The notes under the pieces were generated by a model. The model was not told the DNA's origin. It saw only the letters and a list, made by a program, of their open reading frames with translations, and did no database searches. Positions 20,551-60,042 of a DNA stretch of 64,000 bases are shown in pieces (the first letter of the stretch is position 1; each line of letters begins with the position of its first letter). The stretch is from NCBI GenBank assembly GCA_965207375.1, contig OZ242274.1, positions 1,408,001 through 1,472,000 on the forward strand, read 5' to 3'. The DNA comes from Nitrosopumilaceae archaeon (GTDB lineage Archaea > Thermoproteota > Nitrososphaeria > Nitrososphaerales > Nitrosopumilaceae). The position numbers were made by a program, and so were the translations under genes.

Positions 20551-21826
20551 CAGTACTTCCGATTATAGATCACAGGTCACTATTTAGACAATATTTTTTG
20601 ACATACAGATCCAAATAACGGAATAATCCTACCCATCTTAACCTTGAGAGAAAAAGATGGGCAAGATATCCCAATAAAATCAGGAACACGAGGGTTTAAA
20701 GTATTTCAATCTGCACTAGGCAGGCTGCCCATTTCGTTTGGAACAGGAAACAACACGAGGTATGGACTCTCAAACGCAGTCAACATGCTACAGGTCATGT
20801 CAGTATACGGCGTGGCTGCCAACAGTGCACACCAATACGCTCCTTCAGGAATAGATATTCCAGGCGGAGACTGGCTTGTACAAAAGATAACCCCAATCGA
20901 TCATGACGACATGATAAAACATGGAGAAAAGATGATACACGATACTGTTGATGTACGCCAAATGAAGCTGGACCGCAGAAACGGCAACAACCAGACGCGC
21001 GTTGCAGCAATAGACAAACACAAGATCCCACACTATGACAAAGACCCTGACATGACAGATATGGTATACTCAAAGCATCATGCAGGAACATACGTCTTTG
21101 AAGCATACATGACTGCCAAGATGGTCTCAGGTGCAAAAGAATTTCATCTTGCAATGGTTCCAGTAACTCGGAACAAGTTTAACCCTGAATTCGTGCGTAA
21201 AACCATACAAAAATGCGATGATTTAGGTGCTGATGTGAACATATACTTGTTGGACCGTGAGTTTTATGCATCTGATGTTATGGATACAATACAGAATCTC
21301 AAAAAACATTTCATAATGCCTGCAGTAAAGAATGCGGGAATCAAAAAGGCAATATTTCAATATGCCCAAGGAAAGCGCGATGCAATATCACAGTATACCT
21401 TTGATAATGGATTTGAATTTAATTTGATCATAGTACCAAATCCCAAAAAACCTGATGCAAAAAATATCTTTGAGAGATATCATGTGTTTGCAACATCATT
21501 GCCGTGTACAGATTCTGATGACATGTTGAAATACATTCCTAAAGCATACAAAACGAGGTGGGGGATTGAGACTGGATATAAACAGGCAAAATCTATACGT
21601 CCATACACCACAAGCAAGAATTCCTCAATGCGGATGTTGATGTTTGTTGTATCTGTAATCCTATCTAACATATGGATAGATTCGCGGATAGAGGTTGCCC
21701 ATCAGACATACAATATTACACTTGTAGCCTTTGTAATGCAGATGGCTCATGCATATTTTGAGTGTCACTCAACTTGGCCGCCCCCCAATAAATCGGCATA
21801 GTCTGGATTTAAAATCGGAAGTACTG
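20551..21826 (+). mobile_element. ISH3-like insertion sequence
   Basis: TIR CAGTACTTCCGATT; TSD AAGTTT (20545-20550, 21827-21832). Confidence 0.9.
20644..21801 (+). CDS. ISH3-family DDE transposase
   Basis: AAIDKH, LLDREFY, YKTRWGIETGY. Confidence 0.9.
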   Translation: MREKDGQDIPIKSGTRGFKVFQSALGRLPISFGTGNNTRYGLSNAVNMLQVMSVYGVAANSAHQYAPSGIDIPGGDWLVQKITPIDHDDMIKHGEKMIHDTVDVRQMKLDRRNGNNQTRVAAIDKHKIPHYDKDPDMTDMVYSKHHAGTYVFEAYMTAKMVSGAKEFHLAMVPVTRNKFNPEFVRKTIQKCDDLGADVNIYLLDREFYASDVMDTIQNLKKHFIMPAVKNAGIKKAIFQYAQGKRDAISQYTFDNGFEFNLIIVPNPKKPDAKNIFERYHVFATSLPCTDSDDMLKYIPKAYKTRWGIETGYKQAKSIRPYTTSKNSSMRMLMFVVSVILSNIWIDSRIEVAHQTYNITLVAFVMQMAHAYFECHSTWPPPNKSA

Positions 21827-30548: not shown

Positions 30549-31427
30549 ATGGTTACACCGGTAGGACTTGATATCGGTACCGGATTCACAAAAGTATCCG
30601 GACTAGGCAAACAATTATCATTTCCATCTCTTTATGCATCACGATATACTGACGGCAGGACGATACACAACATGAATCAGTCAAAAAACATCCTTGAGGA
30701 GTGTGTTGGAAGACATGCTATTCCAATGGGTGAATCGCGTACAGGCACAATGATACGTCCCGTAAAACATGGACTCCCATGTCATGACAAGGGATATTCT
30801 AAATTGACAACAGAGGCCCTATCACTTGTTGGTATAAGCAATATATCTGATGCATATATTGTAGCAGGAGTAACCTTTGATGCAAAATCAGGCATTAAAA
30901 GAATTAAAAGAATAATCAAGTCACTAAAGCCCCATATGATCAAGATTGTACCACAGGCCTATGGAACCATGACATATTGTAACAAAAAAAGTGGAACCGT
31001 TGTAAATATAGGCCATGGAACCACAGAAGTAATCCATATCAAATCAGGAGTTATAGAGGGTAGTTCCATTCCAAAGGCTTCAAACTTTGTAACGGATCAG
31101 CTTGACAAAACACGTGGTTCCTATGTCAATTACAAAAAACTGTTTTCACAAAATGAATCCCTTACACAAAAACTAGTGTATCATTTGGCAGAACACATTG
31201 CAGATGAGGTGACCCGTATAGCATCACATGATAATATCATACTTGCAGGAGGGGGCTCGTTGCTTCCAGGAATGCGCGAAAACTTGGAAAAAATACTTTA
31301 TACTAAAACCATAGTGCCTGACAATCCAGTATTTTCAAATGCCATAGGTCTTGAAATGATAGCCAAAACAATGGTAGAACAGGCAGAACCAAAGACAGAA
31401 CATACATCTGTTGAAAAAATACTCTAA
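30549..31427 (+). CDS. Actin-like partition ATPase (ParM/StbA/Ta0583-like)
   Basis: GLDIGTGFTK, PQAYG, NIGHGTT, LAGGGS, NAIG. Confidence 0.85.
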   Translation: MVTPVGLDIGTGFTKVSGLGKQLSFPSLYASRYTDGRTIHNMNQSKNILEECVGRHAIPMGESRTGTMIRPVKHGLPCHDKGYSKLTTEALSLVGISNISDAYIVAGVTFDAKSGIKRIKRIIKSLKPHMIKIVPQAYGTMTYCNKKSGTVVNIGHGTTEVIHIKSGVIEGSSIPKASNFVTDQLDKTRGSYVNYKKLFSQNESLTQKLVYHLAEHIADEVTRIASHDNIILAGGGSLLPGMRENLEKILYTKTIVPDNPVFSNAIGLEMIAKTMVEQAEPKTEHTSVEKIL

Positions 31428-34256: not shown

Positions 34257-35620
34257 TAGACAGTAGCGCAACCCTGCCTAAAATCCTTCAAAATCATACG
34301 AAATGACCCATATTAGACTAATCCATCAGGATTTTTTACATTACGTGCTTTTTGATCATGATATCACTTGTATGCTTGTGCCTAAACTAGCTGATGGAAC
34401 TAAAATTACTCATGCTCAAAACGATGCAAGATACATCGAACGTGGAAGACAGCTTGCATTGACCAACAAAAGTCTTGATGATCCACAAATACAAGAGGAG
34501 TTACGCAGTATGAACAAGAAAAAAAACGGACATCCGTATGAATATCCTGATTCGTTGTTTGTTGCCCTAGCACTAGTACGTTCAATGTGCGGATTGTCAT
34601 ATCGTGTACTTGAAGGATTAGCAGCAGAATCCCTTGGTAAAGACAACGTTCCACATTTTACAAAAATACGCACACGCATTCTAGCACTAGATACAGACAA
34701 GCTTGGAAAGATGACATTCAAAAAAAATGGTAATAACAAGGTTACAATCAGCATACTACCTGACGGTACAGGCCTAGAGCCGTGTACCCGTGGAGAATTT
34801 ATACGTGCCAAACACAAAGTTAGGCGTGGTTTTATCAGATTTACAACAATAATTGATCACGATACCATGAAGATACTTGCCTATGAGATTACAGATGAGC
34901 GTACCGGAGAAGCAATGGGACTAGAGAATATGATTGAAACCGCACTAGAAAATCTGGGTGTACAGGTACAAAAACAAGATACAGAAAAACTAGATACAAA
35001 ACAGGAGAATGTAAAGAGTGGTACAAAAAAACAAGACACAAAACAGGATAAAGAATATGATTCAACAGATACAATTCAGACTCGCTTGGAAGAAAAGGAC
35101 AAAGACAATAATCCAAATATCAGACTGTTAGGTGATGGACTGTATTCAAAATGCAAGTTCTTTGATATGTGTGATTTATTTGGAATCGAGCTGGTATCAC
35201 CAGTAGCTTCTAACTCTGCTGCAAAGGTACGTGGTAGAAAGGGAGGCAGGGCGCGCAAAAAGGCTGTACTAGAACAGCTTGGAGGAGGAGTGCATGCCAA
35301 TACATTTGCAACATTAACTGATGCACAACGTGCAGAAAATATGAAAAAGTGGAAAAAACAGGTAGGATACGGCAGAAGATGGCTAGTTGAGATAATGTTT
35401 TCAGCATTCAAGCGAATGTTTGGAAGCGCTGTAATGGCAGTAAAGATGGAAAACATAGTTCGGGAGATTTCATTTAAGGTATTTGCATACAATAAAATGC
35501 TAGACATAGCGCAGGAGGCCATGGCTAGAGCATAATGACTGTAAACTTTACAGTACAAGTCAATCAGACTTGGATCAAGTGAGTTAGATTTGGACCAAGT
35601 CGTAGTTGCGCTACTGTCTA
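34257..35620 (+). mobile_element. IS5-family insertion sequence
   Basis: 16-bp TIR TAGACAGTAGCGCAAC; 8-bp TSD GTAGGTTC (34249-34256, 35621-35628). Confidence 0.9.
34303..35535 (+). CDS. IS5-family transposase, paralog of 14616..15806
   Basis: PDGTG, GDGLY, YGRRWLVEIMFSAFKR. Confidence 0.9.
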   Translation: MTHIRLIHQDFLHYVLFDHDITCMLVPKLADGTKITHAQNDARYIERGRQLALTNKSLDDPQIQEELRSMNKKKNGHPYEYPDSLFVALALVRSMCGLSYRVLEGLAAESLGKDNVPHFTKIRTRILALDTDKLGKMTFKKNGNNKVTISILPDGTGLEPCTRGEFIRAKHKVRRGFIRFTTIIDHDTMKILAYEITDERTGEAMGLENMIETALENLGVQVQKQDTEKLDTKQENVKSGTKKQDTKQDKEYDSTDTIQTRLEEKDKDNNPNIRLLGDGLYSKCKFFDMCDLFGIELVSPVASNSAAKVRGRKGGRARKKAVLEQLGGGVHANTFATLTDAQRAENMKKWKKQVGYGRRWLVEIMFSAFKRMFGSAVMAVKMENIVREISFKVFAYNKMLDIAQEAMARA

Positions 35621-36063: not shown

Positions 36064-36135
36064 AGGCCTGTTGTTTAGTAGAAGAACGATTGACTGAAAA
36101 TCAATAGGTCACGGGTTCGAATCCCGTCAGGTCCA
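36064..36135 (+). tRNA. tRNA-Phe(GAA)-like gene with degenerate D loop
   Basis: ATTGA-CTGAAAA-TCAAT anticodon arm, ACGGG-TTCGAAT-CCCGT T arm, GGCCTG/CAGGTC acceptor; D loop lacks GG; AT-rich TATA-like upstream. Confidence 0.7.
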
Positions 36136-36577
36136 CGCCTTACCTAATGTCGTACAAATTCCTTGATCAAGGATTTTCTAAAATAACCAAAAATCGAGTA
36201 AATTTAACATCTAGCCTTAATTTTTTGGTACAAACTCAGGTCGTAAATTTTTCAGCCACAAAATTTTCACATATGTTCAAAAACTACATAGAATCAGAGG
36301 TGACCTGAATATTTGCTTGTTTGCATTGGTACTTGGAGAGTGGAATCTTGTAGAACTTGGATTACTGCCATCATCTAATTTACTTGATCGTGGCACATAA
36401 GATTACGTATATTCCCGCCGTGTACTTAAATAATTGATTAAATCAATATGGATATGGAAAATGAAAAACCAAAAGAAATCAAAAAAGCACCAGAACGACC
36501 GTTTTATGGTAGTCAGGAACAACCCACACGTACCGCTCCAGATGGTTCATCTAGCCAAGGACCCATCAAAGGTAAAC

Positions 36578-37769: not shown

Positions 37770-38381
37770 CTAGAAATCAGCAGTCCTGATATTTTTGATT
37801 TGTAACGGAGTTACCTTCTGATGATTTCGAATTTCTTCAAAATCTCCATCAAAAGTCCAAAATTCGTCACATTCCATCTCTTTTGCTAACAACACGTGTA
37901 ATGCGTCATATGATGCAAGAGATTTGTATGATGTGGTAGGTATTCTGCCCTTATTACATTTCTTGCAATAATCATGCGTTTTGATTGTCCCCCTTACCGA
38001 ATCCAAAATTAATTGTGCATCTGTTAGCAGTTGATTCATGTCAATGCTTTTCTTGACCTGAAAGATTATTTTGTTTTCCATGCGTAATAACTCCTCTAGT
38101 ATTTTTTTATACATAGACGAGGATTCTTTAATGACATGGTCTACTCTGTTAGTGACATCTGGAATTGCCAACAGTTTGGATTTGTCCTGCCCTACTCTAT
38201 TTTTAAGTACAGCCATGATCTCGATCAGGACAAGAGCAGAAACTACACCCTCTATATGGCCCTCTTTTATTTTGTCAAATACCTGATCCGCTAGTTTTGT
38301 TTGTGTTCGATTGCTTTCAAACCCAGTAATTTTTGCAAGAAGTATATTGGAATCCAAATATACTCTGATCAATCTAATCAC
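37770..38381 (-). CDS. PIN-domain (VapC-like) toxin
   Basis: VYLDSNIL, LIEI, YDALHV, TFDGDF. Confidence 0.85.
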   Translation of the reverse strand: MIRLIRVYLDSNILLAKITGFESNRTQTKLADQVFDKIKEGHIEGVVSALVLIEIMAVLKNRVGQDKSKLLAIPDVTNRVDHVIKESSSMYKKILEELLRMENKIIFQVKKSIDMNQLLTDAQLILDSVRGTIKTHDYCKKCNKGRIPTTSYKSLASYDALHVLLAKEMECDEFWTFDGDFEEIRNHQKVTPLQIKNIRTADF

Positions 38382-39977: not shown

Positions 39978-40319
39978 TTAATCTCCTAATATACTCCTGG
40001 GATTTTCCCACATGTCTTTTACGTCATCATCTAGACCACCATCTGTATCGTCTGTGTCATCAAGTGTTGTTTCTGTCGGTTTTTCACTCGTTTGTGTATT
40101 CATATTAAGAATCCTCATCTCTTCTAACAGCCAAGGTTTTAGTTTGTCCTCAGAATCAAGGATTAGTTTCATCTCATCTAGAAATGATACCATTCTACAT
40201 TTTTCTCTATATCTTGCCTTTGCTCGCTGTTTGGCAGTCATTGTTCCAGGTGATGACAACAATCGCTTTAGTTTCTTGATTGGCATGGTATCATAATAGT
40301 AAATAGTATAAAAGGTCAA
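39978..40319 (-). CDS. Hypothetical protein, tandem paralog 1 (likely start MPIKKL)
   Basis: Near-identical termini to 40408..40752. Confidence 0.6.
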   Translation of the reverse strand: MTFYTIYYYDTMPIKKLKRLLSSPGTMTAKQRAKARYREKCRMVSFLDEMKLILDSEDKLKPWLLEEMRILNMNTQTSEKPTETTLDDTDDTDGGLDDDVKDMWENPRSILGD

Positions 40320-40407: not shown

Positions 40408-40752
40408 TTACTCTCCTAATACACTACTAGGATTTTCCCACATGTCTTTTACGTCATCATCTAGACCGTCATCAGAGTCGTCTGTATAATCTGGTGTTGG
40501 TTCTACAAGTTTTGTATTTTTTTGCATGCACATATCCCGTTTATCCATCTCCTCTTTTAGGAATTGTTTTAGTTTTGTATCCTCAGAATCCCGTATTAGT
40601 TGCATGTCATCTAATTCTCTTTTTATTCTACATTTCTGTCTATGTCTAGTTATTTTTTTTTGATGAACAGTCATTGTTCCAGGTGATGACAACAATCGCT
40701 TTAGTTTCTTGATTGGCATGGCATCATAATAGTAAATAGTATAAAAGGTCAA
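40408..40752 (-). CDS. Hypothetical protein, tandem paralog 2
   Basis: Basic N-terminus, acidic C-terminus GLDDDVKDMWENP. Confidence 0.6.
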   Translation of the reverse strand: MTFYTIYYYDAMPIKKLKRLLSSPGTMTVHQKKITRHRQKCRIKRELDDMQLIRDSEDTKLKQFLKEEMDKRDMCMQKNTKLVEPTPDYTDDSDDGLDDDVKDMWENPSSVLGE

Positions 40753-41895
40753 AATTTGATTCTACACTGCCAATTTACACATACGTTGTATTGTAATCAT
40801 CATGTATTGTTTATGTGTAGAATGGACCATTAATGCTTGCAAGTGTCAGATTTTCAACATTTTAGTTAACTGATTTTATAAATGTAAATTCACATGATAA
40901 GTATATCTGAGATGCATCTAGAACTGTAAATATGGGGATCATAAACCTGACTTTTTCACTAATTTTTTCCTAAGAATTAAATACTAATTGTTTGAAGACT
41001 TGTTATGACAGAAACATCATATTCGGAAGATTTTGGTGAATATCAAAAAGAAGAAGATGAGATTTCCTGTACATACAATTCCGCAGAAGAAGCAGAAGAC
41101 GCCGTATTGAAAGAAATACTTGATGAATAAAACAGAGTGAGAATATGGCAGACATCTCATTGTCCAAACTTTTTAAACAACAGATTCATGACGACTGAAT
41201 GAGTAAGATAAATAGAATAAGAATAACTCGTTCTTTCAAACGGGTCGAGCGTATGATTTTGGATCTAGAAAGGCATGGTTTTGATATCGAACAAATGAAT
41301 ATCAGAATAAAGATAATATACAACATACGAGTTATTTTCAAAGTCATGCCACAACAAGACAAAATAATAGTTAAAAAAATCTTATTTCAATGATCGGTTT
41401 AATGATAATCTACATAAACAACTGATTTGATTTCTTTTTGCAAATATGATTAAGTGATTTCGAGATGTAGTATGAAACCCTATCTTCTTCAGCCCATCAT
41501 TCACACATTGTTTTAACTCCTCTTCATCGGAATCAAGTATGGTTCTAAGGACTATAGTAATTAGTTGTATTTTCTGATATGGGTCATCAACTTCATCTAC
41601 CAGTGCTTGCAATGCCTGAGAGATGATTCGTAATTAGAAAACCACGCCTAACAAGAGCAAAAATCTGTGCCCAGATCTAATTACGAATCACGTCTCTGTA
41701 TTTCCAATAACTGTTCATCTGTCATATCATTAGTATATCTAAATAATATAAAAGGAGTAACGTAGATATTTTTCTATGAATAATTTGTAAAAACTTTCTA
41801 TCGTCTATTGTAGTTGTTTGTATCTTGTTGTTTGCTTTTTGTCACAAGGAATTGAATTTTTATTTGTGAATTTAATTTTTTGACAAGATTATTGT

Positions 41896-42143
41896 GGTAT
41901 CATCATATTGATACCTTTACCCTATTATGGTAGTTTAGTATCATTATATTGATACTTTTTTTTGTATATTACTGACTAAACGGGCTAACTTGTTTTGTGC
42001 AGTATAGTAGTGAAAACAAAAAACCAGGAATAAAATTCCAAAACAAATAGCAAATGCATGCGAAAAAACGTACACCCCCTAGATTTTCAACTACCCTACC
42101 AAAATCAACAAATTCAAAAATAAAGTCACGTCATATTGATACC
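41896..42143. promoter_or_regulatory. Repeated palindromic sites RGTATC-N8-GATACY
   Basis: 41896-41915, 41937-41956, half-site CATATTGATACC at 42132-42143. Confidence 0.55.
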
Positions 42144-42205
42144 TTTTTCACCACAAAAATCTTCTGAAATTTTTCAAATCAATTTTAAAAATTACACTAA
42201 ACCAC

Positions 42206-42268
42206 ATGGGCGATGATGAGACCACACATCTGAATCAGTATGATTGATTCCATTCATTCTGAGCCCAT
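42206..42268 (+). ncRNA. Box C/D guide RNA unit 1
   Basis: ATGGGC-g-ATGATGA-gaccacacat-CTGA-atcagt-ATGATTGA-ttccattcatt-CTGA-GCCCAT. Confidence 0.85.
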
Positions 42269-42344
42269 CATAACCTACTTTCACAGAAACATCTTCTGCT
42301 ATTAAATTTGTCCTTTCAGATTTGTAAAAATTCCACTAAACAAC

Positions 42345-42409
42345 ATGGGCTATGATGAAGAACAGTCGTTCTGAAACCAGATGATTCACGATTTGCAATC
42401 TGAGCCCAT
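42345..42409 (+). ncRNA. Box C/D guide RNA unit 2
   Basis: ATGGGC-t-ATGATGA-agaacagtcgtt-CTGA-aaccag-ATGATTC-acgatttgcaat-CTGA-GCCCAT. Confidence 0.85.
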
Positions 42410-42484
42410 CACACCCTTTTCACAAAGAATCATTTTCTCTATTAAATCTGCCGAACAAAACTTGTAAAAATTTCACTAAACAAC

Positions 42485-42555
42485 ATGGGCTATGATGAAG
42501 TCAATCAGCTGAACAATCTACAAATGTAGAGACCCGCGGCTGAATCTGAGCCCAT
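42485..42555 (+). ncRNA. Box C/D guide RNA unit 3
   Basis: ATGATGA-agtcaatcag-CTGA...ATGTAGA-gacccgcggctgaat-CTGA inside ATGGGC/GCCCAT. Confidence 0.85.
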
Positions 42556-42631
42556 CATAACTTGTCTTCACAGTAACATTTTCTATTATTAAATTTGTCC
42601 TTTTAGACTTGTAAAAATTTCACTAAACCAC

Positions 42632-42696
42632 ATGGGCGATGATGAGACCACACAAACTGACTTCTGTATGAAGAATCATCCCTGGTCTGAGCCCAT
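42632..42696 (+). ncRNA. Box C/D guide RNA unit 4
   Basis: ATGATGA-gaccacacaaa-CTGA-cttctgt-ATGAAGA-atcatccctggt-CTGA inside ATGGGC/GCCCAT. Confidence 0.85.
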
Positions 42697-42772
42697 CATA
42701 ACCTCATTTTCACAGAACTATTTCTGCTATAAACTTTCCATAATGAAAAACAATTACAATATTTAATGTAAA

Positions 42773-42863
42773 GTGAGCGGCGATGATGAACGCGTGCAAA
42801 TCATATCCGATGAGAGACGGAAATGTTGATGCCTGACTCGCCGAGAGTCCCTGAGCCGCACAC
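42773..42863 (+). ncRNA. Box C/D RNA unit 5 (long guides, different stem)
   Basis: GCGGC-g-ATGATGA-17nt-CCGA...ATGTTGA-21nt-CTGA-GCCGC. Confidence 0.8.
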
Positions 42864-42919
42864 TTCTCTCAACTTTCATTTCTTTCTTTTTAAACTTTGT
42901 AAAAATTACACTAAACCAC

Positions 42920-42984
42920 ATGGGCAATGATGAGACCACACAAACTGACTTCTGTATGAAGAATCATCCCTGGTCTGAGCCCAT
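42920..42984 (+). ncRNA. Box C/D guide RNA unit 6 (core identical to unit 4)
   Basis: Same boxes and guides as 42632-42696. Confidence 0.85.
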
Positions 42985-43109
42985 CATAACTTGTCTTCAC
43001 AGTAACATTTTCTATATCTAAACCTGCCGCAACCACAGGTACAATTTTCGTTCTTTGCAAGAACAAGCCCAGTGAGGGTTAATTACAAGTCAAACATCGC
43101 AAGCCGATT

Positions 43110-43646
43110 TTGGCTAAATTTACAAAACTTACGCTCATGACTACAAAACGAAACCAAAAAATCACCATTGATGGTAAGGAATACCTAAAACGAGACGTAT
43201 GTAGATACGTCAAGGATTTCTCTGGAGAGATAGATGATCTCATCCTAACACCATGTGGTACAGGTCAGTCAGCCATAAAAAACTACGACGATGAAGTCGT
43301 GGCAACTGTTGACACAGACTGCATCCGAACTTTACTCGGTGATACCATACCGATTGAAGGTTTGGAGAGTATTGATGACAGACGTCAAAGGAAGGAATTT
43401 ACAAAAACGACACAAGTTGCTACAGGGAATTGGCACTCATGCATAGCAGATGAGAAAGGTAATCTACCTGATTGTGACGTGTGTCAATCATATATTCCAG
43501 AAAGCACATGGATAAGCCTACATAACATGTTGGCCGAATCTCTGGAAGATTCTATGATTGTTACCTTGCGCGACGAGTATGTCAAAGGACTAGATGATAG
43601 TCTACGATTCATTATAGAGTCCGAAGCTGACCGACGAGGATTGTAA
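43110..43646 (+). CDS. Hypothetical protein (likely start 43138); N-terminus homologous to 48646..49905
   Basis: KITIDGKEY...VC versus KINVDGKQY...VC. Confidence 0.7.
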   Translation: MAKFTKLTLMTTKRNQKITIDGKEYLKRDVCRYVKDFSGEIDDLILTPCGTGQSAIKNYDDEVVATVDTDCIRTLLGDTIPIEGLESIDDRRQRKEFTKTTQVATGNWHSCIADEKGNLPDCDVCQSYIPESTWISLHNMLAESLEDSMIVTLRDEYVKGLDDSLRFIIESEADRRGL

Positions 43647-43720
43647 AATCCTCCCCCTTTTTTATTTTCAATAATGATTATTTCTTTTTCAAATCAATTT
43701 TCAAAATTTTACTAAACCAT

Positions 43721-43784
43721 ATGGGTGATGATGAACCGGCAGTCGATTTGATCTCGATGATGAAAAGCCAGAGTCTGAGCCCAT
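43721..43784 (+). ncRNA. Box C/D guide RNA unit 7
   Basis: ATGGGT-g-ATGATGA-accggcagtcgat-TTGA-tctcg-ATGATGA-aaagccagagt-CTGA-GCCCAT; same flanks as units 1-4 and 6. Confidence 0.85.
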
Positions 43785-43872
43785 CATAACCTCATTTACA
43801 GAAACATTTTCTGCTATTAAATTTGTCCCTTTATTTTTCAAGAGACTGGTCAAAGCCGGAAATATTTTGCTC

Positions 43873-43962
43873 ATGAAAAAAGAAAAACAGGAAAAAACAC
43901 CATATTTTCCAAGAATAAAACGAGAATTCGAAGATGACCCAGAAGACCGGGAAATCTGGTGA
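43873..43962 (+). CDS. 29-aa peptide MKKEKQ...DREIW
   Basis: Manual translation; followed by a T-run. Confidence 0.35.
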   Translation: MKKEKQEKTPYFPRIKREFEDDPEDREIW

Positions 43963-43974
43963 ATCACCCCCTTT

Positions 43975-44049
43975 TTTGTGACCTGACAAGTCTTTTCAAA
44001 TCTCACAGTATCCCGTATGGGGCTGACAGGCAGGTGAGTGTGGAAAAGA
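43975..44049 (+). ncRNA. Unrecognised structured RNA motif, copy A
   Basis: GTGACCTGACAA-TCTTTTC-AAAT-CTCAC...CTGACAGGCAG-GTGAG-TGTG-GAAAAGA. Confidence 0.75.
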
Positions 44050-44064
44050 TACAACGTGATTCAA

Positions 44065-44229
44065 ATGTACAAAAACAAAGAACTCGTAGCATCTGAGCTT
44101 GTTGAATCTAACATTCTCAGATCAGACTCTGGTTTCCTCCAGGGAATAATCACCCATGAGGAACTCACAGAGATTGACAAGTTGATGGATGAAGCATTCA
44201 TCGACTTTGACATTTTGTGTCGGGAATAA
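44065..44229 (+). CDS. Small acidic protein
   Basis: 54 aa, directly after motif copy A. Confidence 0.55.
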   Translation: MYKNKELVASELVESNILRSDSGFLQGIITHEELTEIDKLMDEAFIDFDILCRE

Positions 44230-44250
44230 TCCGATACACAAACCCATTTT

Positions 44251-44324
44251 TTTGTGACCTGACAAACTTTTCAAACCGGCATTATCTGATGTATCAGACT
44301 GACAGGCAGGCCGGTGTGGAAAAG
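44251..44324 (+). ncRNA. Structured RNA motif, copy B
   Basis: Helix CCGGC/GCCGG replaces CTCAC/GTGAG. Confidence 0.75.
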
Positions 44325-44333
44325 CAAGCAACC

Positions 44334-44744
44334 ATGAAAAAAAGACAAAAAATCAAAATCCCCATCATGGATGCCCTAAAAAAGACAAAAGAACGACTAT
44401 TCAAAATACAAAACGCTGTATTTTGGGGTATCGTTGTAGTCGGTACAGGAATGAGCATAACCGATTCAATGGTCGAAAAACCTATTTTTGTTGACGGCAT
44501 AGCCTTTATTATTGCTGGCTTCGTAGGTTTGATAATGTCTTGGATAACTGCTGATGTTGCAAAAAGTCTTACCGAAAAAATCGAAAAAGTCGGTCAAGAA
44601 ACCAAAGAGGAAATTCGCAAGGTAGGTAAAGAAACCAAAGAGGAAATTCGCAAGGTAGGTACCGCAGTTGAAAAACACATGGAAGTATCTATAAAACAAA
44701 CTGAGATCCTGGAGAAGATCTTGCACAAACTTCCAGACAAGTAG
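44334..44744 (+). CDS. Two-TM plus coiled-coil protein, paralog 1
   Basis: Two TMs; 11-aa repeats EIRKVGKETKE. Confidence 0.8.
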   Translation: MKKRQKIKIPIMDALKKTKERLFKIQNAVFWGIVVVGTGMSITDSMVEKPIFVDGIAFIIAGFVGLIMSWITADVAKSLTEKIEKVGQETKEEIRKVGKETKEEIRKVGTAVEKHMEVSIKQTEILEKILHKLPDK

Positions 44745-45108: not shown

Positions 45109-46269
45109 TCAATCTCTAATTGCTTCAGCTATTTCTTTACATACAAATATTTTACTTTTGTATTTGTTACTTATCTCATCTAGTATTTGTACGTCAATTA
45201 ATCTCTGTACAGCATTTTTTGCCGATGGGTAAGTTATGCCTAAATAATCTGCGGCTTTTGGAATTGTTATGAATGGATTTCCTAACAAATAATCTATCAA
45301 CAAGACCGCACTTCCACTAACACGTTGTTTTTTCAAAGTTTGTTTGTATTTTTTTTGAAGAGTTAACAACCTTTGAATATTTTCAATTGCCTCATCTGCC
45401 GTTACCGTTATCGCATGTAAGAAAAACATCAACCATTCTTTCCATTTACTTTGTTGACTAATGGCCAACAATCCTGCATAATACCTGTCCAAGTTTTTTT
45501 CAAAATATGCACTCAAATACAATAAGGGTTGAGAAAGCAAACCTCTTTCTGTTAAAAGTAAAGGAATCAACACTCTTCCAATTCTTCCATTTCCATCTAG
45601 AAAAGGATGTATAGCTTCAAATTGATAGTGTAGAATTGCACATTGTAGAACTACTGAAAGATTTTCTGGTGGTTTTTGTAGAAATTCTTCTACTTGTTCT
45701 AATAATGATACAACATATTCAGGTGGTGGGGGTGTATATACGGAATTTTCAAGGGTATCACCATATCTGACTATCCAATTTTGAACTGTTCTAAACGATC
45801 CTGGATTTTTATCTCCACCTCTGACCCCCATCATCAATATTTTGTGAGATTCTCTTATCATTTCTAAATCTATTTTTCTTCCATCTTTGATTATCTCCTT
45901 GATTTTTTCTTGTAACACTTTCACATAGTTTCTTACCTCTTTCAACCGTAATCTTTCTTCGTCTTCTTGACGAAAACTTCCTACTACCTCATATTGTAAT
46001 AGATCAGTCATTGATGCTAATGTTCCCTCGATTTTGGAACTTAATACGGCTTCCCGAGTAAGATAGGGTCTAATCAACACATGTGGATTTGGAAGTAAAT
46101 CACCTCTTCCTTTTAATTCCGCCAATTTTCGTTCTGCATGAACAAGAGACATTACTAAATCATCGTCATATTGTATTTCTGGTGGTATTTTATTAGGAAT
46201 AAAGGTCTCATATCCTTTCGTATTTTTTATTATTTTGCCGTTAGGATTGGTAAAGTCACTTTTATTCAT
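45109..46269 (-). CDS. Fic-family protein
   Basis: SSKIEG and HPFLDGNGRIGR motifs; C-terminal HTH. Confidence 0.95.
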   Translation of the reverse strand: MNKSDFTNPNGKIIKNTKGYETFIPNKIPPEIQYDDDLVMSLVHAERKLAELKGRGDLLPNPHVLIRPYLTREAVLSSKIEGTLASMTDLLQYEVVGSFRQEDEERLRLKEVRNYVKVLQEKIKEIIKDGRKIDLEMIRESHKILMMGVRGGDKNPGSFRTVQNWIVRYGDTLENSVYTPPPPEYVVSLLEQVEEFLQKPPENLSVVLQCAILHYQFEAIHPFLDGNGRIGRVLIPLLLTERGLLSQPLLYLSAYFEKNLDRYYAGLLAISQQSKWKEWLMFFLHAITVTADEAIENIQRLLTLQKKYKQTLKKQRVSGSAVLLIDYLLGNPFITIPKAADYLGITYPSAKNAVQRLIDVQILDEISNKYKSKIFVCKEIAEAIRD

Positions 46270-46469: not shown

Positions 46470-47606
46470 GTGTCCAAACAAAAAACCAAACAGAGCCGTG
46501 AACTATTAAACAATCCACGATTATATCAAGATGCCGCATCTGGTGCCAAAAACATGCTTGCATGTACTACTTTGTCAGTCAAGGGCAATACGATATATGG
46601 AGTTGATGATCTCAGTACCGGAATGTTGAGGGCTACCATTATGGATTCCTCTGTAGGAGGATGTGCAAATGCGGTAAAACAAAAAAACAGCAATACGCCA
46701 TCAGACAGATGGTATGCATCTGCAATCAAGGGGATATCAGAGGAAACAGTACAGGACGTTTTCCAATTACAGATAGCAAGACAGGTTAAAATTCTCAAAA
46801 AAATGGGAAAGATTCCAAAGAAGGGGCTTACAGTTGCAATGGACCTACACCTCATATGCCGTTATGACAGGACACATGGGGAGGAGTTGACCCGTTCCAA
46901 ATACAAAAACGGCACGACATACTTTGAGCGTTACATGACGGTTCACTGTGTGGATGATACAATGAGAGTCGTTCTAGCTGCAATACATCTCAAAATGCTT
47001 GATTCCGTGCCTAAATCGGTGAATTTTCTGCTCAAAACACTGTCGGATTTGGGGGTAAAAGTTCGTCTGGCATTATGTGATCGTGAGTTTTTCTCAGTGG
47101 ATACAATGCAAATGCTGATTCAAAACGACGTATCCTTTTTGATACCTTGCAGAAATACACCAAATGTAAAATCTGCACTAGACGAGTATAGTCGTAAAAA
47201 ACGTGATGTAACATCAGAGTGCACCCTACAAAACGACTGTCATTCTGTACCGTATACAATGATAATAGAAAGAAGAAAAGGGTCAAAGGATACTGATGTT
47301 GCCGAGGAAAAATACATTGGCTTTGCAACTAACTGTAATACTGTAGACGTTACAGAATATGCAAGTAGGTGGGGGATAGAATCAGGATACGGCAAGATAG
47401 AGGAATGCAGGGCCAAGACACGAATCAAGGATAATGTATCAAGAATGCTGTGTTTTTATTATTCACTGATACTGTACAATGAGTGGATAATTATCAGGGC
47501 TATTCTTTGTGACGATACAGCAAGTCAGAGTATTATGACCATGCTAGTTTTCAAAGTACAAATGGATTTTGAGTTGATGCGTCAGTTCAAGCCGCCGCCA
47601 GGGTAG
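46470..47606 (+). CDS. ISH3-family transposase
   Basis: AMDLH, CDREFF, YASRWGIESGY. Confidence 0.9.
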   Translation: MSKQKTKQSRELLNNPRLYQDAASGAKNMLACTTLSVKGNTIYGVDDLSTGMLRATIMDSSVGGCANAVKQKNSNTPSDRWYASAIKGISEETVQDVFQLQIARQVKILKKMGKIPKKGLTVAMDLHLICRYDRTHGEELTRSKYKNGTTYFERYMTVHCVDDTMRVVLAAIHLKMLDSVPKSVNFLLKTLSDLGVKVRLALCDREFFSVDTMQMLIQNDVSFLIPCRNTPNVKSALDEYSRKKRDVTSECTLQNDCHSVPYTMIIERRKGSKDTDVAEEKYIGFATNCNTVDVTEYASRWGIESGYGKIEECRAKTRIKDNVSRMLCFYYSLILYNEWIIIRAILCDDTASQSIMTMLVFKVQMDFELMRQFKPPPG

Positions 47607-47893: not shown

Positions 47894-47980
47894 TTTGTGA
47901 CCTGACAAACTTTTCAAATCCGTTAATATCAAGTATAGCGTAAGCTGTACCCGGCTGACAGGCAGAACGGTGTGGAAAAG
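47894..47980 (+). ncRNA. Structured RNA motif, copy D
   Basis: As copy C, GTAA loop. Confidence 0.75.
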
Positions 47981-47989
47981 CAAACAACC

Positions 47990-48379
47990 ATGAAAAAGAG
48001 TCAAAAAATCAGAAACTCCGTCATGGATGCCCTAAAAAAGACAAAAGAACGACTATTCAAAATACAAAACGCTGTATTTTGGGGTATCGTTGTAGTCGGT
48101 ACAGGAATGAGCATAACCGATTCAATGGTCGAAAAACCTATTTTTGTTGACGGCATAGCCTTTATTATTGCTGGCTTCGTAGGTTTGATAATGTCTTGGA
48201 TAACTGCCGATGTTGCAAAAAGTCTTACCGAAAAAATCGAAAAAGTCGGTCAAGAAACCAAAGAGGAAATCCGCAAAGTAGGTACCACAGTCGAAAAACA
48301 CATGGAAGTAACTGTGAAACAGACAGAAAAACTAACCGAGATCCTGGAGAAGATCTTGCACAAACTTCCAGACAAGTAG
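47990..48379 (+). CDS. Two-TM coiled-coil paralog 3
   Basis: Near-identical to 44334..44744. Confidence 0.8.
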   Translation: MKKSQKIRNSVMDALKKTKERLFKIQNAVFWGIVVVGTGMSITDSMVEKPIFVDGIAFIIAGFVGLIMSWITADVAKSLTEKIEKVGQETKEEIRKVGTTVEKHMEVTVKQTEKLTEILEKILHKLPDK

Positions 48380-48645: not shown

Positions 48646-49905
48646 ATGAGTGTAACAAACAAACCAACAAAAATCAACGTTGATGGAAAACAATATCCGT
48701 TAGCGTTTGTATGTAAAAAAATCAGAACAACCCTAAAACTCTCATCTGCCGTGTATAACCGCGGTAACACATTTTTGTGTGATGGAGATATGGTGGCTGT
48801 TCTGTCTGGAAATCACATAACATCTGTGATAACCGGCAAGAAACTAGACCTTTCACAAAGCCATGTGAAAAAAACACATGAACTAATTGATAACTGCAAA
48901 AAATCAATTGGTGATTTCACAGACTCTGCGGACTTTTATCAAAGAGAACCTGAAGGCTTTGAACCAATCAGCGGCAAAGCATTTGCAATTGGTTGGAAAA
49001 AAGACGGCTTTTACGAGTCGTTACATTTTGCAGATGCAGACGGCACAATGTTAAATGCTATACTAGACAAAGACACAATCGACACTCTAGTAAAACCATA
49101 CAACAGACCTGTAATAGAGCGTAGACATGTAAACTACACACCACGCTCAGAAGAGGTAGCGTTTGCACTAGCAGACATGCAAGGTTCTGACATACTAGTC
49201 CGTACGGAAAACCAATTCCATGGAAAAGTTACAGAACCCATATTTGTCGAGGAGCAACCATCAGAACAATACCAGTTTCTTTTATCTGATGATGGTCAAA
49301 TCTTGACACAAAAGTACACACCGATAAAGGAATGTGACTGCATATCTGTATCATCAATGAGTGATGAGTTCAGAGAAGCATTTGCTGATATTATCGACGA
49401 ATCACAAATGGGTGCAAAAACAGACTATACAACAGAGGCCCAAATATGTGAAGAAATAATAGACATAGAAGATGTGGTACCTTCACACTTTGTAGCAGAC
49501 AAAACAGCAAGAGATGTCAAAAGACAAAGCCAGAGTATACACACAGGTGAGAGAACACACAAGCCAAGAAAACATGACAATAGGACATACAATCCTGCTG
49601 ACATTTTGTCTCATGCCAAAACACTAGACAGCAAATCTTTGATTGTTATCTACAAACCAATGATATCACAATATCATGACCACGGTGAGACTGAACGACA
49701 CTGCAACATCTGTGTCTTTGAAGATGTATCAGAAAATCTTGAAGATACAATGGTGTCTCTTCGTGGCATGGAAGCATCTCAACTAACTGTATTTATCAAA
49801 ACAGTTGAAACCGCAATGGACCAACTACAGGTACCAACACACAAGGAGCCTGTGGAATTATCCATCGCAAAAAGCCTGCTAAAAGCAAAGTCTTCACATT
49901 GCTAA
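48646..49905 (+). CDS. Hypothetical protein
   Basis: 419 aa; AGGAGGT upstream. Confidence 0.75.
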   Translation: MSVTNKPTKINVDGKQYPLAFVCKKIRTTLKLSSAVYNRGNTFLCDGDMVAVLSGNHITSVITGKKLDLSQSHVKKTHELIDNCKKSIGDFTDSADFYQREPEGFEPISGKAFAIGWKKDGFYESLHFADADGTMLNAILDKDTIDTLVKPYNRPVIERRHVNYTPRSEEVAFALADMQGSDILVRTENQFHGKVTEPIFVEEQPSEQYQFLLSDDGQILTQKYTPIKECDCISVSSMSDEFREAFADIIDESQMGAKTDYTTEAQICEEIIDIEDVVPSHFVADKTARDVKRQSQSIHTGERTHKPRKHDNRTYNPADILSHAKTLDSKSLIVIYKPMISQYHDHGETERHCNICVFEDVSENLEDTMVSLRGMEASQLTVFIKTVETAMDQLQVPTHKEPVELSIAKSLLKAKSSHC

Positions 49906-57937: not shown

Positions 57938-58204
57938 ATGAAAAATACAGTAATGAAATTTGTCCATGTAAAATGTATGGACTGCCCGTATGATGACTAT
58001 ATCTGCATAGCACAACCAGGACATTTGGCAGTAGGCCAGATTATACATCTTGGAGAAAAATGCTACTGCGGTTCATATCGAGTACGGGTAATAGGACATG
58101 ATGGTTTAAAGGCAGTAGAACACAACTATGCCAAATGTGGACTGCCATTTGACCGTGAAGAATTTTTAGATAGCATAAAGTCACAGATGCTTGAAAACCA
58201 ATGA
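57938..58204 (+). CDS. Cys-rich small protein
   Basis: CMDC, CYCG; AGGAGG upstream. Confidence 0.55.
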   Translation: MKNTVMKFVHVKCMDCPYDDYICIAQPGHLAVGQIIHLGEKCYCGSYRVRVIGHDGLKAVEHNYAKCGLPFDREEFLDSIKSQMLENQ

Positions 58205-58815
58205 GTACAAGACGTATAGCAAGAAACATTGCAATAAGTGTGGTAATCATGGTCTGCTTTGTTATACTAGCACCTATAATCAGCACCCATGTCACACCTA
58301 CAGTATATGAACTTGTAGAAACAGGCATAAAAGAAATAGACAATACCGGCAGGAACATGACACCAGATGGAACAACACAGATATGGTATAACAGAGCTGA
58401 TGCAACTGAAATATCTGAATCAGTCTCTTCTACAAATCCTGACAAACCTAAATTTGGTAAAAGTACGGCAGGCAGTATAGGGCGTATTGTAGATGGTGAC
58501 ACACTAGATATCAACGGTCAAAGAATACGACTTGCACTAGTTAACACACCTGAACGTGGAGAAGCCGGATATGAAGAGGCAAAAATATACCTCAACGCAA
58601 AGTGTCCGGTTGGAAGCACGGCAATTTATGACCCAGATGATACACAAAAGCCGTCTTATGGCCGAATAGTTGCAAAGGTATGGTGTGTTCATTCAACTAG
58701 TGAAATATCTGTAAATGAGATGCTTGTATTATCCGGACATGCACAAATATTAGATTCATTTTGCAAACAAAGTGAATTTGGTAGAGAATCTTGGGCCCGC
58801 AGCAGCGGTTGCTAG
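58201..58815 (+). CDS. Thermonuclease (SNase) family, membrane-anchored
   Basis: IVDGDTL, IRLALVNTPE, YGRIVA, VNEMLVLSGHA. Confidence 0.9.
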   Translation: MSTRRIARNIAISVVIMVCFVILAPIISTHVTPTVYELVETGIKEIDNTGRNMTPDGTTQIWYNRADATEISESVSSTNPDKPKFGKSTAGSIGRIVDGDTLDINGQRIRLALVNTPERGEAGYEEAKIYLNAKCPVGSTAIYDPDDTQKPSYGRIVAKVWCVHSTSEISVNEMLVLSGHAQILDSFCKQSEFGRESWARSSGC

Positions 58816-59211: not shown

Positions 59212-60042
59212 ATGGCACACGAACTAGAAAAATCAAAATCAGCCAACGTAAACGAACAGCTGAAAAAAATAGTAGATGCATTCTCAACTGAGAAATTCCC
59301 AGAGGTCTTATCCACTACATACATCAAATCTATGGGCAAGCCAATTGAAAACTGGAGTTTTGGAAACAAGATGATTGCAATGTTTGAAGGTACTACAGAT
59401 GCTAGAACCTACAATCAATGGCACAAAGTAGGACGACATCCCAAAAAGGGTTCAAAGGCGTTTTACATTCTTGCACCAAATACGTACAGAAAAAAGGAGA
59501 TCAATGCAGAAACAGGTGCAGAAGATACTGTGACTGTAATGAAAGGGTTCAGGGGCATGCCAGTATTTAGATTCGAAGATACAGAAGGTGCGAGTCTTAA
59601 GGTATCAAAGGAGCCAAAATTGCCGCCCTTAATGGAGGTGGCAAAACACTTTGGTGCAGATGTAAGATTTGAGGCAAAAACTGACGGTGCCTATGGCTAT
59701 TTTGCACCGCGTACAGACAAGCCTCTGATTGTACTGTGTAGTGAAGACCCTACAATATTTTTCCACGAATTGACCCATCTGGTACACCATGTGTGCATAG
59801 AAAAACTAAAACCCGGACAGGACCAAGAACAAGAGACAGTAGCACAACTTTCTGCCTGTGTTCTAGGAGCAATGTACGGTATAGACAATATGGCATTTAG
59901 CTGGAACTATATTGCAAACTATGCAAAAACCAACAAACCCGAAGCCGTAGGTAGAGTATGTCTTAAGGTGCTATCTAAGGTACAAAAAATCCTAAAGATA
60001 ATTCTCGAATTTGAAGAAAAGTCAAAGGAGGCGATGTCATGA
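59212..60042 (+). CDS. ardC: ArdC-like ssDNA-binding anti-restriction protein
   Basis: WSFGN, TYNQWHKVGRHPKKGSKA, metallopeptidase FHELTH, ETVAQ. Confidence 0.8.
   Translation: MAHELEKSKSANVNEQLKKIVDAFSTEKFPEVLSTTYIKSMGKPIENWSFGNKMIAMFEGTTDARTYNQWHKVGRHPKKGSKAFYILAPNTYRKKEINAETGAEDTVTVMKGFRGMPVFRFEDTEGASLKVSKEPKLPPLMEVAKHFGADVRFEAKTDGAYGYFAPRTDKPLIVLCSEDPTIFFHELTHLVHHVCIEKLKPGQDQEQETVAQLSACVLGAMYGIDNMAFSWNYIANYAKTNKPEAVGRVCLKVLSKVQKILKIILEFEEKSKEAMS

Follow-up and report, generated by a model that had tools for sequence, protein, structure and literature searches.

A probable tandem array of archaeal box C/D sRNA genes with candidate rRNA-methylation guides on a plasmid-like island of a Nitrosopumilaceae archaeon

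A stretch of 64,000 nucleotides (nt) from a Nitrosopumilaceae archaeon (assembly GCA_965207375.1, contig OZ242274.1, positions 1,408,001 to 1,472,000), hereafter called the window, was found to contain seven box C/D guide-RNA units on the forward strand. Six of them lie in tandem at 42206-42984 with a period of ~140 nt, and the seventh stands apart at 43721-43784. With a probability of roughly 0.72, we regard the locus as a tandem array of independently transcribed archaeal box C/D small RNA (sRNA) genes, which would act as guides of ribosomal RNA (rRNA) methylation and which lie on a plasmid-like island. Ordinary chemistry in an unusual arrangement is thus the best-supported reading. Guides of the box C/D type are generally regarded as housekeeping genes scattered over the chromosome, and mesophilic archaea are believed to have few of them. 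Below, positions without prefix are those of the window, C1 denotes the contig that holds it and G000 the genome.

RESULTS

Unit anatomy and RNA class

The units were detected by direct reading of 41400-43400 together with a C-box motif scan, and Tandem Repeats Finder reported a 140-nt period at 42186-42500. A common plan was seen in six of the seven units. In 5' to 3' order it consists of a conserved leader, which holds an A/T-rich TATA-like box, then a 6-bp stem, box C (ATGATGA), a variable segment of 10-13 nt (the D' guide), box D' (CTGA; TTGA in unit 7), 5-7 nt, a C'-like box, a variable segment of 12 nt (the D guide), box D (CTGA), the 3' half of the stem, and a conserved trailer of ~40 nt with a T-rich run at its end. 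Box C and box D were present in 7/7 units, the 6-bp stem in six, and a 5-bp stem in unit 5. The spacer of the D guide is exactly 12 nt long in units 1, 2, 4 and 6; it measures 11 nt in unit 7, and a hairpin plus a longer segment takes its place in unit 3. Box D' was accompanied by a C' box, with 5-7 of 7 consensus positions, in units 1, 2, 4, 6 and 7.

All units are encoded on the plus strand. Unit 1 (42206-42268) has a 6-bp terminal stem, a C box at 42213-42219, a D' guide at 42220-42229, a D' box at 42230-42233, a C' box at 42240-42246, a 12-nt D guide at 42247-42258 and a D box at 42259-42262; it scored 63.2 bits with the covariance model R1, which was built on 11 units (4 from the window and 7 from a congener, genome G004), and it gave sub-threshold Rfam C/D matches. 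Unit 2 (42345-42409) has its C box at 42352-42358, a 12-nt D' guide at 42359-42370, the D' box at 42371-42374, the C' box at 42381-42387, a 12-nt D guide at 42388-42399 and the D box at 42400-42403. Unit 3 (42485-42555; 29.1 bits) is a longer, box C/D-like sRNA gene with an internal hairpin in place of C'. Unit 4 (42632-42696; 70.3 bits) comprises a C box at 42639-42645, a D' guide at 42646-42656, a D' box at 42657-42660, a C' box at 42668-42674, a 12-nt D guide at 42675-42686 and a D box at 42687-42690. Unit 6 (42920-42984; 66.8 bits; D guide at 42963-42974) repeats unit 4 without change between the C box and the 3' stem and differs from it by one base immediately before the C box, so that the two units encode the same RNA; its 3' flank resembles that of unit 3. 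Unit 7 (43721-43784; 56.2 bits) has perfect ATGATGA boxes at both C and C', together with the TTGA variant of D'. Unit 5 (42777-42859) is a divergent RNA of 83 nt with a C box, a D box and a 5-bp G+C terminal stem of its own. Its leader is unlike that of the other units, its inner boxes are ill-defined, its rRNA matches do not exceed 7 nt, and its fold is not distinctive (z = -1.34).

The terminal stem was paired in 66/66 cells of an alignment of four window units and the seven G004 units, and two of its pairs were changed on both sides between G000 and G004, which is a compensatory pattern. When Rfam was searched at a relaxed threshold (E <= 1) over 41500-44300, 25/25 matches belonged to C/D-box families, on the plus strand and at the unit positions. 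The best of them was sR5 on unit 4, whose 30.2 bits (E 1.9e-4) stay below the family's gathering score of 40.

A conserved leader of 29 nt was located on the plus strand at 42183-42211 (unit 1), 42322-42350 (unit 2), 42462-42490 (unit 3), 42609-42637 (unit 4) and 42897-42925 (unit 6); these five matches with at most one mismatch compare with none in 100 shuffles. It contains a TATA-like A/T box ~22-25 nt before the 5' stem of the sRNA, and by its position the leader is a putative promoter. A scan for bacterial promoters and terminators, which is unsuited to archaea, gave 10 promoter-like sites against 6.6 +/- 2.9 in shuffles. Between units, the flanks are 63-72% identical without gaps, whereas the guides are only 36-37% identical. 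Because of this divergence between conserved flanks, and because the leader occurs five times, the units show a cassette pattern. The array probably originated by tandem duplication of a whole cassette (leader, sRNA and trailer), after which the guide segments were replaced or diverged.

The host is archaeal, as indicated by the large-subunit (LSU) and small-subunit (SSU) rRNA models (2686 and 1445 bits), and it carries archaeal amoA (382 bits); it is therefore an ammonia oxidiser. The proteins of the archaeal box C/D ribonucleoprotein (RNP) are encoded in the same genome: L7Ae at C1:794086-794358 (97 bits), and a single Nop5 gene at C1:979628-980293 (236 bits) that adjoins fibrillarin at C1:978643-979299 (283 bits). 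In the assembly, 85% of contig C1 (2.16 Mb) was occupied by long open frames, and 22-30% of contigs C2-C4 (2.14 Mb), which also have eukaryote-like transfer RNA (tRNA) clusters and a shared dispersed repeat. C2-C4 are probably not DNA of this archaeon, and only C1 looks archaeal.

Guide complementarity to the host rRNA

The guides were compared with the 23S rRNA of the same genome (C1:1847314-1850315, minus strand). The predicted target nucleotide, N+5, faces the fifth guide position counted upstream from box D or D', and E. coli numbers were obtained by alignment to an E. coli 23S rRNA. The unit 1 D guide forms 10 contiguous Watson-Crick pairs with LSU 2074-2083, with N+5 at A2077 (E. coli A1969, domain IV). 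The unit 2 D guide forms 10 pairs with LSU 866-875, with N+5 at C868, near E. coli 750 in domain II, where the local alignment is loose. The D' guide of unit 2 gave 8 pairs with LSU 1894-1901, extended to 1902 by one G:U pair (N+5 A1896, E. coli A1773), and the D guide common to units 4 and 6 gave 8 pairs with LSU 2546-2553 (N+5 G2549, E. coli G2445, in the peptidyl-transferase centre). For unit 3 the best guide matches were 8 nt only (SSU 452-459), and those of unit 7 were also 8 nt.

Controls were run with 10 distinct guides, each defined as the 12 nt that precede a D or D' box, and a match had to cover N+5; units 4 and 6 were counted once, and unit 5 was excluded for its ill-defined boxes. 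In 5000 guide shuffles against LSU and SSU, 0.10 guides were expected to reach >=10 nt, and 2 were observed (P = 0.0046). The summed longest matches amounted to 78, compared with 69.4 in the shuffles (P = 0.006). When the 46 tRNAs of contig C1 were added to the targets, P at >=10 nt was 0.009. Among 1983 random C1 segments of equal length that served as decoy targets, 1.1% reached two guides at >=10 nt, and antisense and reversed rRNA gave at most 8 nt for every guide. These results demonstrated that the enrichment of rRNA matches is real, but that it is carried by two guides, the D guides of units 1 and 2. The 8-mers of the unit 2 D' guide and the unit 4/6 D guide, taken alone, are indistinguishable from chance.

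An earlier note on this DNA had proposed, for 42248-42399, that four guide strings are complementary to conserved LSU motifs. All four strings were indeed recovered in guides and in the host's own 23S rRNA; the two of 10 nt lie above chance and the two 8-mers at chance level. The stretch named there spans only the unit 1 D guide to the unit 2 D guide. We take the targets of units 1 and 2 to be placed in or near helices 35/35a and 68-71, judging by helix assignments. Archaeal 23S methylation hotspots are described as including these helices (PMC4644070), and 8 bp is the lower limit of guide-target pairing in one published catalogue (PMC6009581).

Two further candidates were rejected. Over 10 nt, the unit 4/6 D guide matches a tRNA-Arg(UCU) on contig C4 at its 3' end, which was taken as chance and set aside because C4 is probably foreign to this archaeon. 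A supposed equivalence of the unit 1 target with yeast Am2280/2281 was contradicted by the E. coli numbering and was dropped.

Related arrays and single sRNAs

A DNA search of 61 related genomes revealed similar units in one congener, G004. Its array (G004:C2:117577-119173, minus strand; loci L004 / L169) consists of 11 units with a period of ~146 nt, a conserved leader of its own, the same boxes and different guides. Three of 13 distinct G004 guides had matches of >=10 nt to G000 rRNA, against 0.12 expected (P = 0.0015 versus random segments; none of 1000 shuffles was as good). One of them, in a D' slot, is the same guide as the unit 1 D guide and addresses the same LSU site, with 11 nt on G004's own LSU. 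Two G004 units carry a D' guide that can pair over 10 nt with G004's own 23S rRNA, at the GAUAACAGGCU segment in the peptidyl-transferase centre; the predicted N+5 of this GAUAACAGGCU-directed guide is the equivalent of E. coli A2451, a nucleotide whose ribose is considered important for peptide-bond formation. The third match was to an SSU site (10 nt, on G000 rRNA). The two LSU matches hold on G004's own LSU; the 23S genes of G000 and G004 are 95.7% identical.

In another genus, genome G067 has a single-copy sRNA whose D' guide forms 12 contiguous pairs with its own LSU. Its predicted target is the same cytidine as that of the unit 2 D guide, reached from the D' half rather than the D half. 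This sRNA is the strongest comparative argument for the unit 2 D guide as a working rRNA guide.

With the covariance model, 50 of 121 genomes of the family gave a match at E <= 0.01, mostly to one conserved sRNA at ~27 bits. Most of the relatives searched had one or two matches, and clusters were found in only four of the 121: G000 (8 matches including two decayed copies), G004 (12), G002 (2 matches, both on one contig of 1.6 kb) and G019 (5 matches, spread over two contigs). G102, G116 and G117 had one weak match each in this tally. Across 151 genomes of the order, a sample without G004 and G002, clusters were found in G000 and G019 only. A pattern for single units gave at least 117 single matches in genome contigs, of which the majority were chance hits to bacterial sequence and a few were single sRNAs from Nitrosopumilus records; in viral contigs it gave 8, all in high-G+C coding sequence or otherwise unlike sRNAs. 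A unit-junction pattern returned at least 118 metagenome and 4 viral contig rows, and among the 122 loci listed one had two or more units. This sole locus was rejected, being a uniform repeat without guide variation that is probably coding.

Some single RNAs deserve separate mention. Most of the family (~40 genomes, e.g. L031, L033 and L040; G000:C1:685801) has retained one box C/D sRNA in single copy; its D guide is invariant, and the longest match of this guide to the G000 rRNAs and tRNAs was 7 nt only. The first spacer of unit 5 is similar to the D' guide of single-copy sRNAs from several Nitrosopumilus records, and a search for rRNA targets of that guide found none. The same spacer holds a 10-nt sense copy of the LSU segment at which unit 2 is aimed; unit 5 could pair with the unit 2 D guide over 8 nt, which may be chance.

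Turnover of the units

Two decayed copies of unit 2 were found elsewhere on C1 (139891-139957 and 345800-345866), both with the D box changed from CTGA to CTAA, and a remnant of unit 3 follows the first of them. In public DNA contigs of four sequencing runs, the array was nearly unchanged in three and rearranged in a relative (run X5), the contigs of which skip unit 1 or join 42312 to 43832. The uncovered interval 42644-42817 in runs X4 and X5 corresponds to the unit 4/6 duplication and is uninformative. Because of the decayed C1 copies and the X5 rearrangements, it is concluded that units of this family are gained, lost and degraded.

This turnover could be read differently: the array would be mostly dead weight, a product of unequal crossing-over in which one unit, two or none would still function, the others being neutral duplicates whose orphan guides drift. 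The mutated D boxes and the X5 contigs would fit such an origin, as would the redundancy of units 4 and 6, the chance-level complementarity of eight of the ten distinct guides, and the look of the D' guides of units 1, 4 and 6 and of several G004 D' guides, which resemble a drifting series of one sequence. Against this, the boxes, terminal stems and 29-nt leader of the array units are intact and the guides alone differ, and the terminal stem is kept by compensatory changes between genomes. Arrays also persist in synteny in the two species compared above, and orphan guides are common among functional archaeal sRNAs in the published catalogue (PMC6009581). We consider this explanation unlikely.

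Genomic island

The array is situated in a strain-specific island that resembles a plasmid or conjugative element and is partly common to related species. Window genes of this kind encode a TadC-like membrane protein (4664-6604), a VirD4/TrwB/HerA-like ATPase (6579-9455), four DDE transposases (14616-15806, 20644-21801, 34303-35535 and 46470-47606), a ParM-like actin (30549-31427), a PIN protein (37770-38381), a Fic protein (45109-46269), an SNase-like nuclease (58201-58815) and an ArdC-like anti-restriction protein (59212-60042). The earlier placement of the array on a mobile element agrees with this gene content. The ATPase and TadC-like genes lie 33 kb upstream of the array, beyond a tRNA-like sequence at 36064-36136. 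Over the 40 kb surrounding the array, similarity at DNA level was confined to short patches in 4 congeners, but the neighbouring genes are shared at protein level. The G004 array is flanked by a ParM-like gene, DNA methylases, an SNase-like gene and homologues of three further window open reading frames (ORFs); its SNase-like protein is 43% identical to that of the window over 224 residues.

An SNase-like gene is linked to sRNA arrays or clusters in three genomes of two genera (G000, G004 and G019). It lies 15 kb from the array in the window, 4 kb away in G004 (L169 2885-3556), and between units in G019 (L167 784-1419).

The tRNA-like gene at 36064-36136 (C1:1444064) has a paralogue just left of the window (C1:1407365), and these two repeats bracket 36.7 kb with conjugation-type genes. 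They belong to five paralogous low-G+C tRNA-like genes with anticodon GAA, the others being at C1:1341225, 1355322 and 1974998. All are distinct from the canonical tRNA-Phe (C1:1921024), and a 31-nt partial copy is present at C1:1233021. These genes may be element-borne tRNAs or attachment sites.

Between units 6 and 7 the array is interrupted by an ORF on the plus strand at 43134-43646 (170 amino acids; 178 from an upstream TTG at 43110). It had no Pfam family above cut-off, no PHROG, no atlas match and no PDB sequence match, and a homologue search returned only the ORF itself. Its AlphaFold2 model (mean predicted local distance difference test score 39.8) is unusable, and BLASTP against the 419-residue ORF at 48646-49905 gave only a weak N-terminal match of 27 residues. 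Just upstream of the array, at 41618-41698, lies an element of ~80 nt that resembles a miniature inverted-repeat transposable element (MITE), bounded by inverted repeats of 13 nt; it occurs 20 times on C1 but is absent from C2-C4, and its depth in public contigs is ~40 times that of its flanks. Two pairs of paralogous small ORFs occur on either side of the array (44217-44744 and 47972-48379; 39978-40319 and 40408-40752). The products are a membrane protein, for which a tandem repeat of 33 nt is present at 44592-44661, and an acidic protein of 113/114 residues; homologues of both are found beside the G004 array.

A quite unlikely further possibility is that the cassettes are island cargo serving the element itself. 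After transfer, the ribosome of the recipient would be methylated at its subunit interface and in the peptidyl-transferase centre, and it would thereby be protected from a ribosome-targeting toxin or antibiotic, or the element would be favoured in some other way. The conjugation-type and plasmid-type genes of the island, the presence of syntenic arrays or clusters in only 4/121 family genomes and the linkage of the same accessory genes in three genomes of two genera are in keeping with it, and predicted targets fall in functional centres (the equivalents of E. coli G2445 for the unit 4/6 D guide and A2451 in G004). Nevertheless, the array could be linked to no gene for a toxin, an antibiotic or immunity, the window's own match in the peptidyl-transferase centre is 8 nt long and at chance level, and the island's mobility is itself deduced indirectly. 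Moreover, the unit 2 site is also aimed at by the single-copy sRNA of G067, an array-free genome, which would fit duplicated housekeeping guides. The protection from ribotoxins or antibiotics that the earlier note had offered as a purpose thus found no support, the sequence speaking neither for nor against it.

DISCUSSION

If the locus is an array of rRNA-methylation guides, each unit would probably be transcribed from its own leader, and the RNA would probably be trimmed to the core protected by its kink-turn (K-turn). Each RNA would fold into a terminal C/D K-turn and an internal C'/D' motif, and the host proteins L7Ae, Nop5 and fibrillarin would assemble on the folded sRNA. Pairing with the target RNA would involve the 12 nt that precede box D or D', and fibrillarin would then methylate the ribose of the nucleotide opposite the fifth guide position. 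The best-supported candidate targets in 23S rRNA are A2077 via unit 1 and C868 via unit 2; A1896 (unit 2 D') and G2549 (unit 4/6 D) are weaker possible targets, and the remaining guides would be orphans, which could be inactive, serve as folding chaperones or have targets that have escaped recognition. The earlier note had the element editing host ribosomes. This stands insofar as the units are box C/D guides, at least two of which are aimed at conserved segments of the host 23S rRNA; the wording is off, the likely process being guidance of 2'-O-methylation by the host fibrillarin complex.

Several observations weigh against this reading. The C' box is degenerate in units 1, 2 and 4, the D' spacers vary between 10 and 13 nt with no uniform 12, and units 3 and 5 depart from the canonical layout. 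No Rfam family reached its gathering score on the array, which does not bear on the class, because the Rfam C/D families are guide-specific. The excess of guide matches over shuffled controls that the earlier note had anticipated appeared at >=10 nt and fell short of P < 0.05 at >=9 nt, where 2 were observed and 0.54 expected in the same 5000 shuffles against LSU and SSU (P = 0.098; 0.19 with the tRNAs added). Eight of the 10 distinct guides have rRNA matches of only 6-8 nt, which is the shuffled level. Partial chromosomal copies carry a mutated D box, so that units of the family evidently decay, and some units of the array may be non-functional too. With regard to the island, no integrase family was found among the 30 window ORFs scanned, no borders were found, and no partial tRNA-like copy was found right of the array; because borders and integrase were not found, its mobility is suggested by gene content and patchy conservation.

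The units agree with known archaeal box C/D sRNAs in their C, D', C' and D boxes, terminal stem, 12-nt D spacers and N+5 geometry, and in the L7Ae-Nop5-fibrillarin machinery encoded in the G000 genome. They also agree in complementarity to conserved 23S regions that are described as methylation hotspots in other archaea (PMC4644070, PMC7994747). The arrangement is different. Published archaeal sRNA genes are mostly dispersed and often abut protein genes, and known clusters comprise two or three genes (PMC7994747), whereas here 6+1 cassettes, and 11 in G004, stand head to tail. The cassettes have a conserved leader and trailer, and the host is a mesophile-type ammonia oxidiser. A further archaeal parallel is the MITE-like sRNA family of Pyrobaculum calidifontis, with 15 dispersed copies (Lui et al. 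2018, PMC6009581). There, too, one scaffold is multiplied in unstable genome regions, with conserved flanks and diverged or orphan guides, and guide replacement and composite sRNAs occur (PMC6009581). Those copies are dispersed and the present ones tandem, and the words 'tandem', 'plasmid' and 'viral' do not occur in the main text of that report (PMC6009581).

Eukaryotic small nucleolar RNA (snoRNA) clusters, as in plants, likewise have head-to-tail C/D RNA genes of duplication origin with many orphan guides. The mammalian SNORD115/116 arrays are presumably comparable tandem C/D RNA clusters. In contrast, the eukaryotic clusters are processed from one precursor or from introns, and the units described here have a TATA-like leader each, a putative start of their own, on a prokaryotic mobile-type island.

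Tandem interspaced guide RNA (TIGR) arrays encode compact dual-spacer RNAs beside a Nop-domain Tas protein, each spacer pairing with one DNA strand, and the systems are described as related to box C/D RNPs, from which they differ in that snoRNA-type RNAs have L7Ae-binding K-turns (Faure et al. 2025, PMC12045711); clustered archaeal arrays are cited there as well. The earlier note had raised this alternative, under which the tandem RNAs would guide a Nop-domain protein to both strands of foreign DNA, and which shares with the locus the tandem layout with two short variable spacers per unit and box C/D-like flanks, the location on mobile elements, and possibly a protein partner, given the uncharacterised ORF at 43134-43646 embedded in the array. 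It is nonetheless highly improbable: the boxes are the canonical K-turn RUGAUGA/CUGA boxes of L7Ae-binding sRNAs, the Pfam Nop model in six frames of the whole genome found Nop5 at C1:979628 only (a very divergent solo-Nop could escape), neither a family nor a fold could be recognised for the embedded ORF, nowhere in the own genome except in the array and a decayed copy do >=9 nt of both guides of a unit lie within 60 nt, and two guides match rRNA in methylation register. TIGR units are also compact (~36 nt, with short edge/loop repeats; PMC12045711), whereas those of the window are 63-83 nt long, have K-turn boxes and lie ~75 nt apart with leader and trailer; their predicted targets are rRNA in methylation register and not paired DNA strands, and no Tas gene was found.

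In searches of the open-access literature, neither tandem arrays in which 6-11 homologous cassettes keep a conserved leader nor box C/D genes on thaumarchaeal integrated elements were found to be described. Integrative conjugative elements and integrated plasmids of Nitrososphaeria, which are marked by VirD4/VirB4-type ATPases and membrane components for conjugation and by an integrase with flanking attachment repeats, have been described (Krupovic et al. 2019, PMC6563490), and the main text of that work does not contain the terms sRNA, snoRNA or fibrillarin.

Beyond the array of methylation guides as such, the cassettes might constitute a horizontally transferable, diversifying library of rRNA-methylation guides on plasmid-like elements of ammonia-oxidising archaea, in which a standard leader-scaffold-trailer unit is multiplied, its two 12-nt guide slots are exchanged and an incoming element re-programmes the methylation of the host ribosome. 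We consider this extension rather unlikely. The sites concerned would include the subunit interface and the peptidyl-transferase centre, and the SNase-like nuclease could be part of the same module. If it is true that the cassettes are transferable cargo that re-programmes ribosome methylation, the interest would be high; as it stands, it is moderate. An array of 6-11 near-identical scaffolds with different guides would show the birth of methylation guides by duplication and guide replacement, and it would raise the possibility that ribosome modification patterns can be acquired horizontally. In its layout the locus also illustrates a stage midway between snoRNA-like genes that lie scattered and the orderly guide arrays of TIGR systems, the two being considered relatives.

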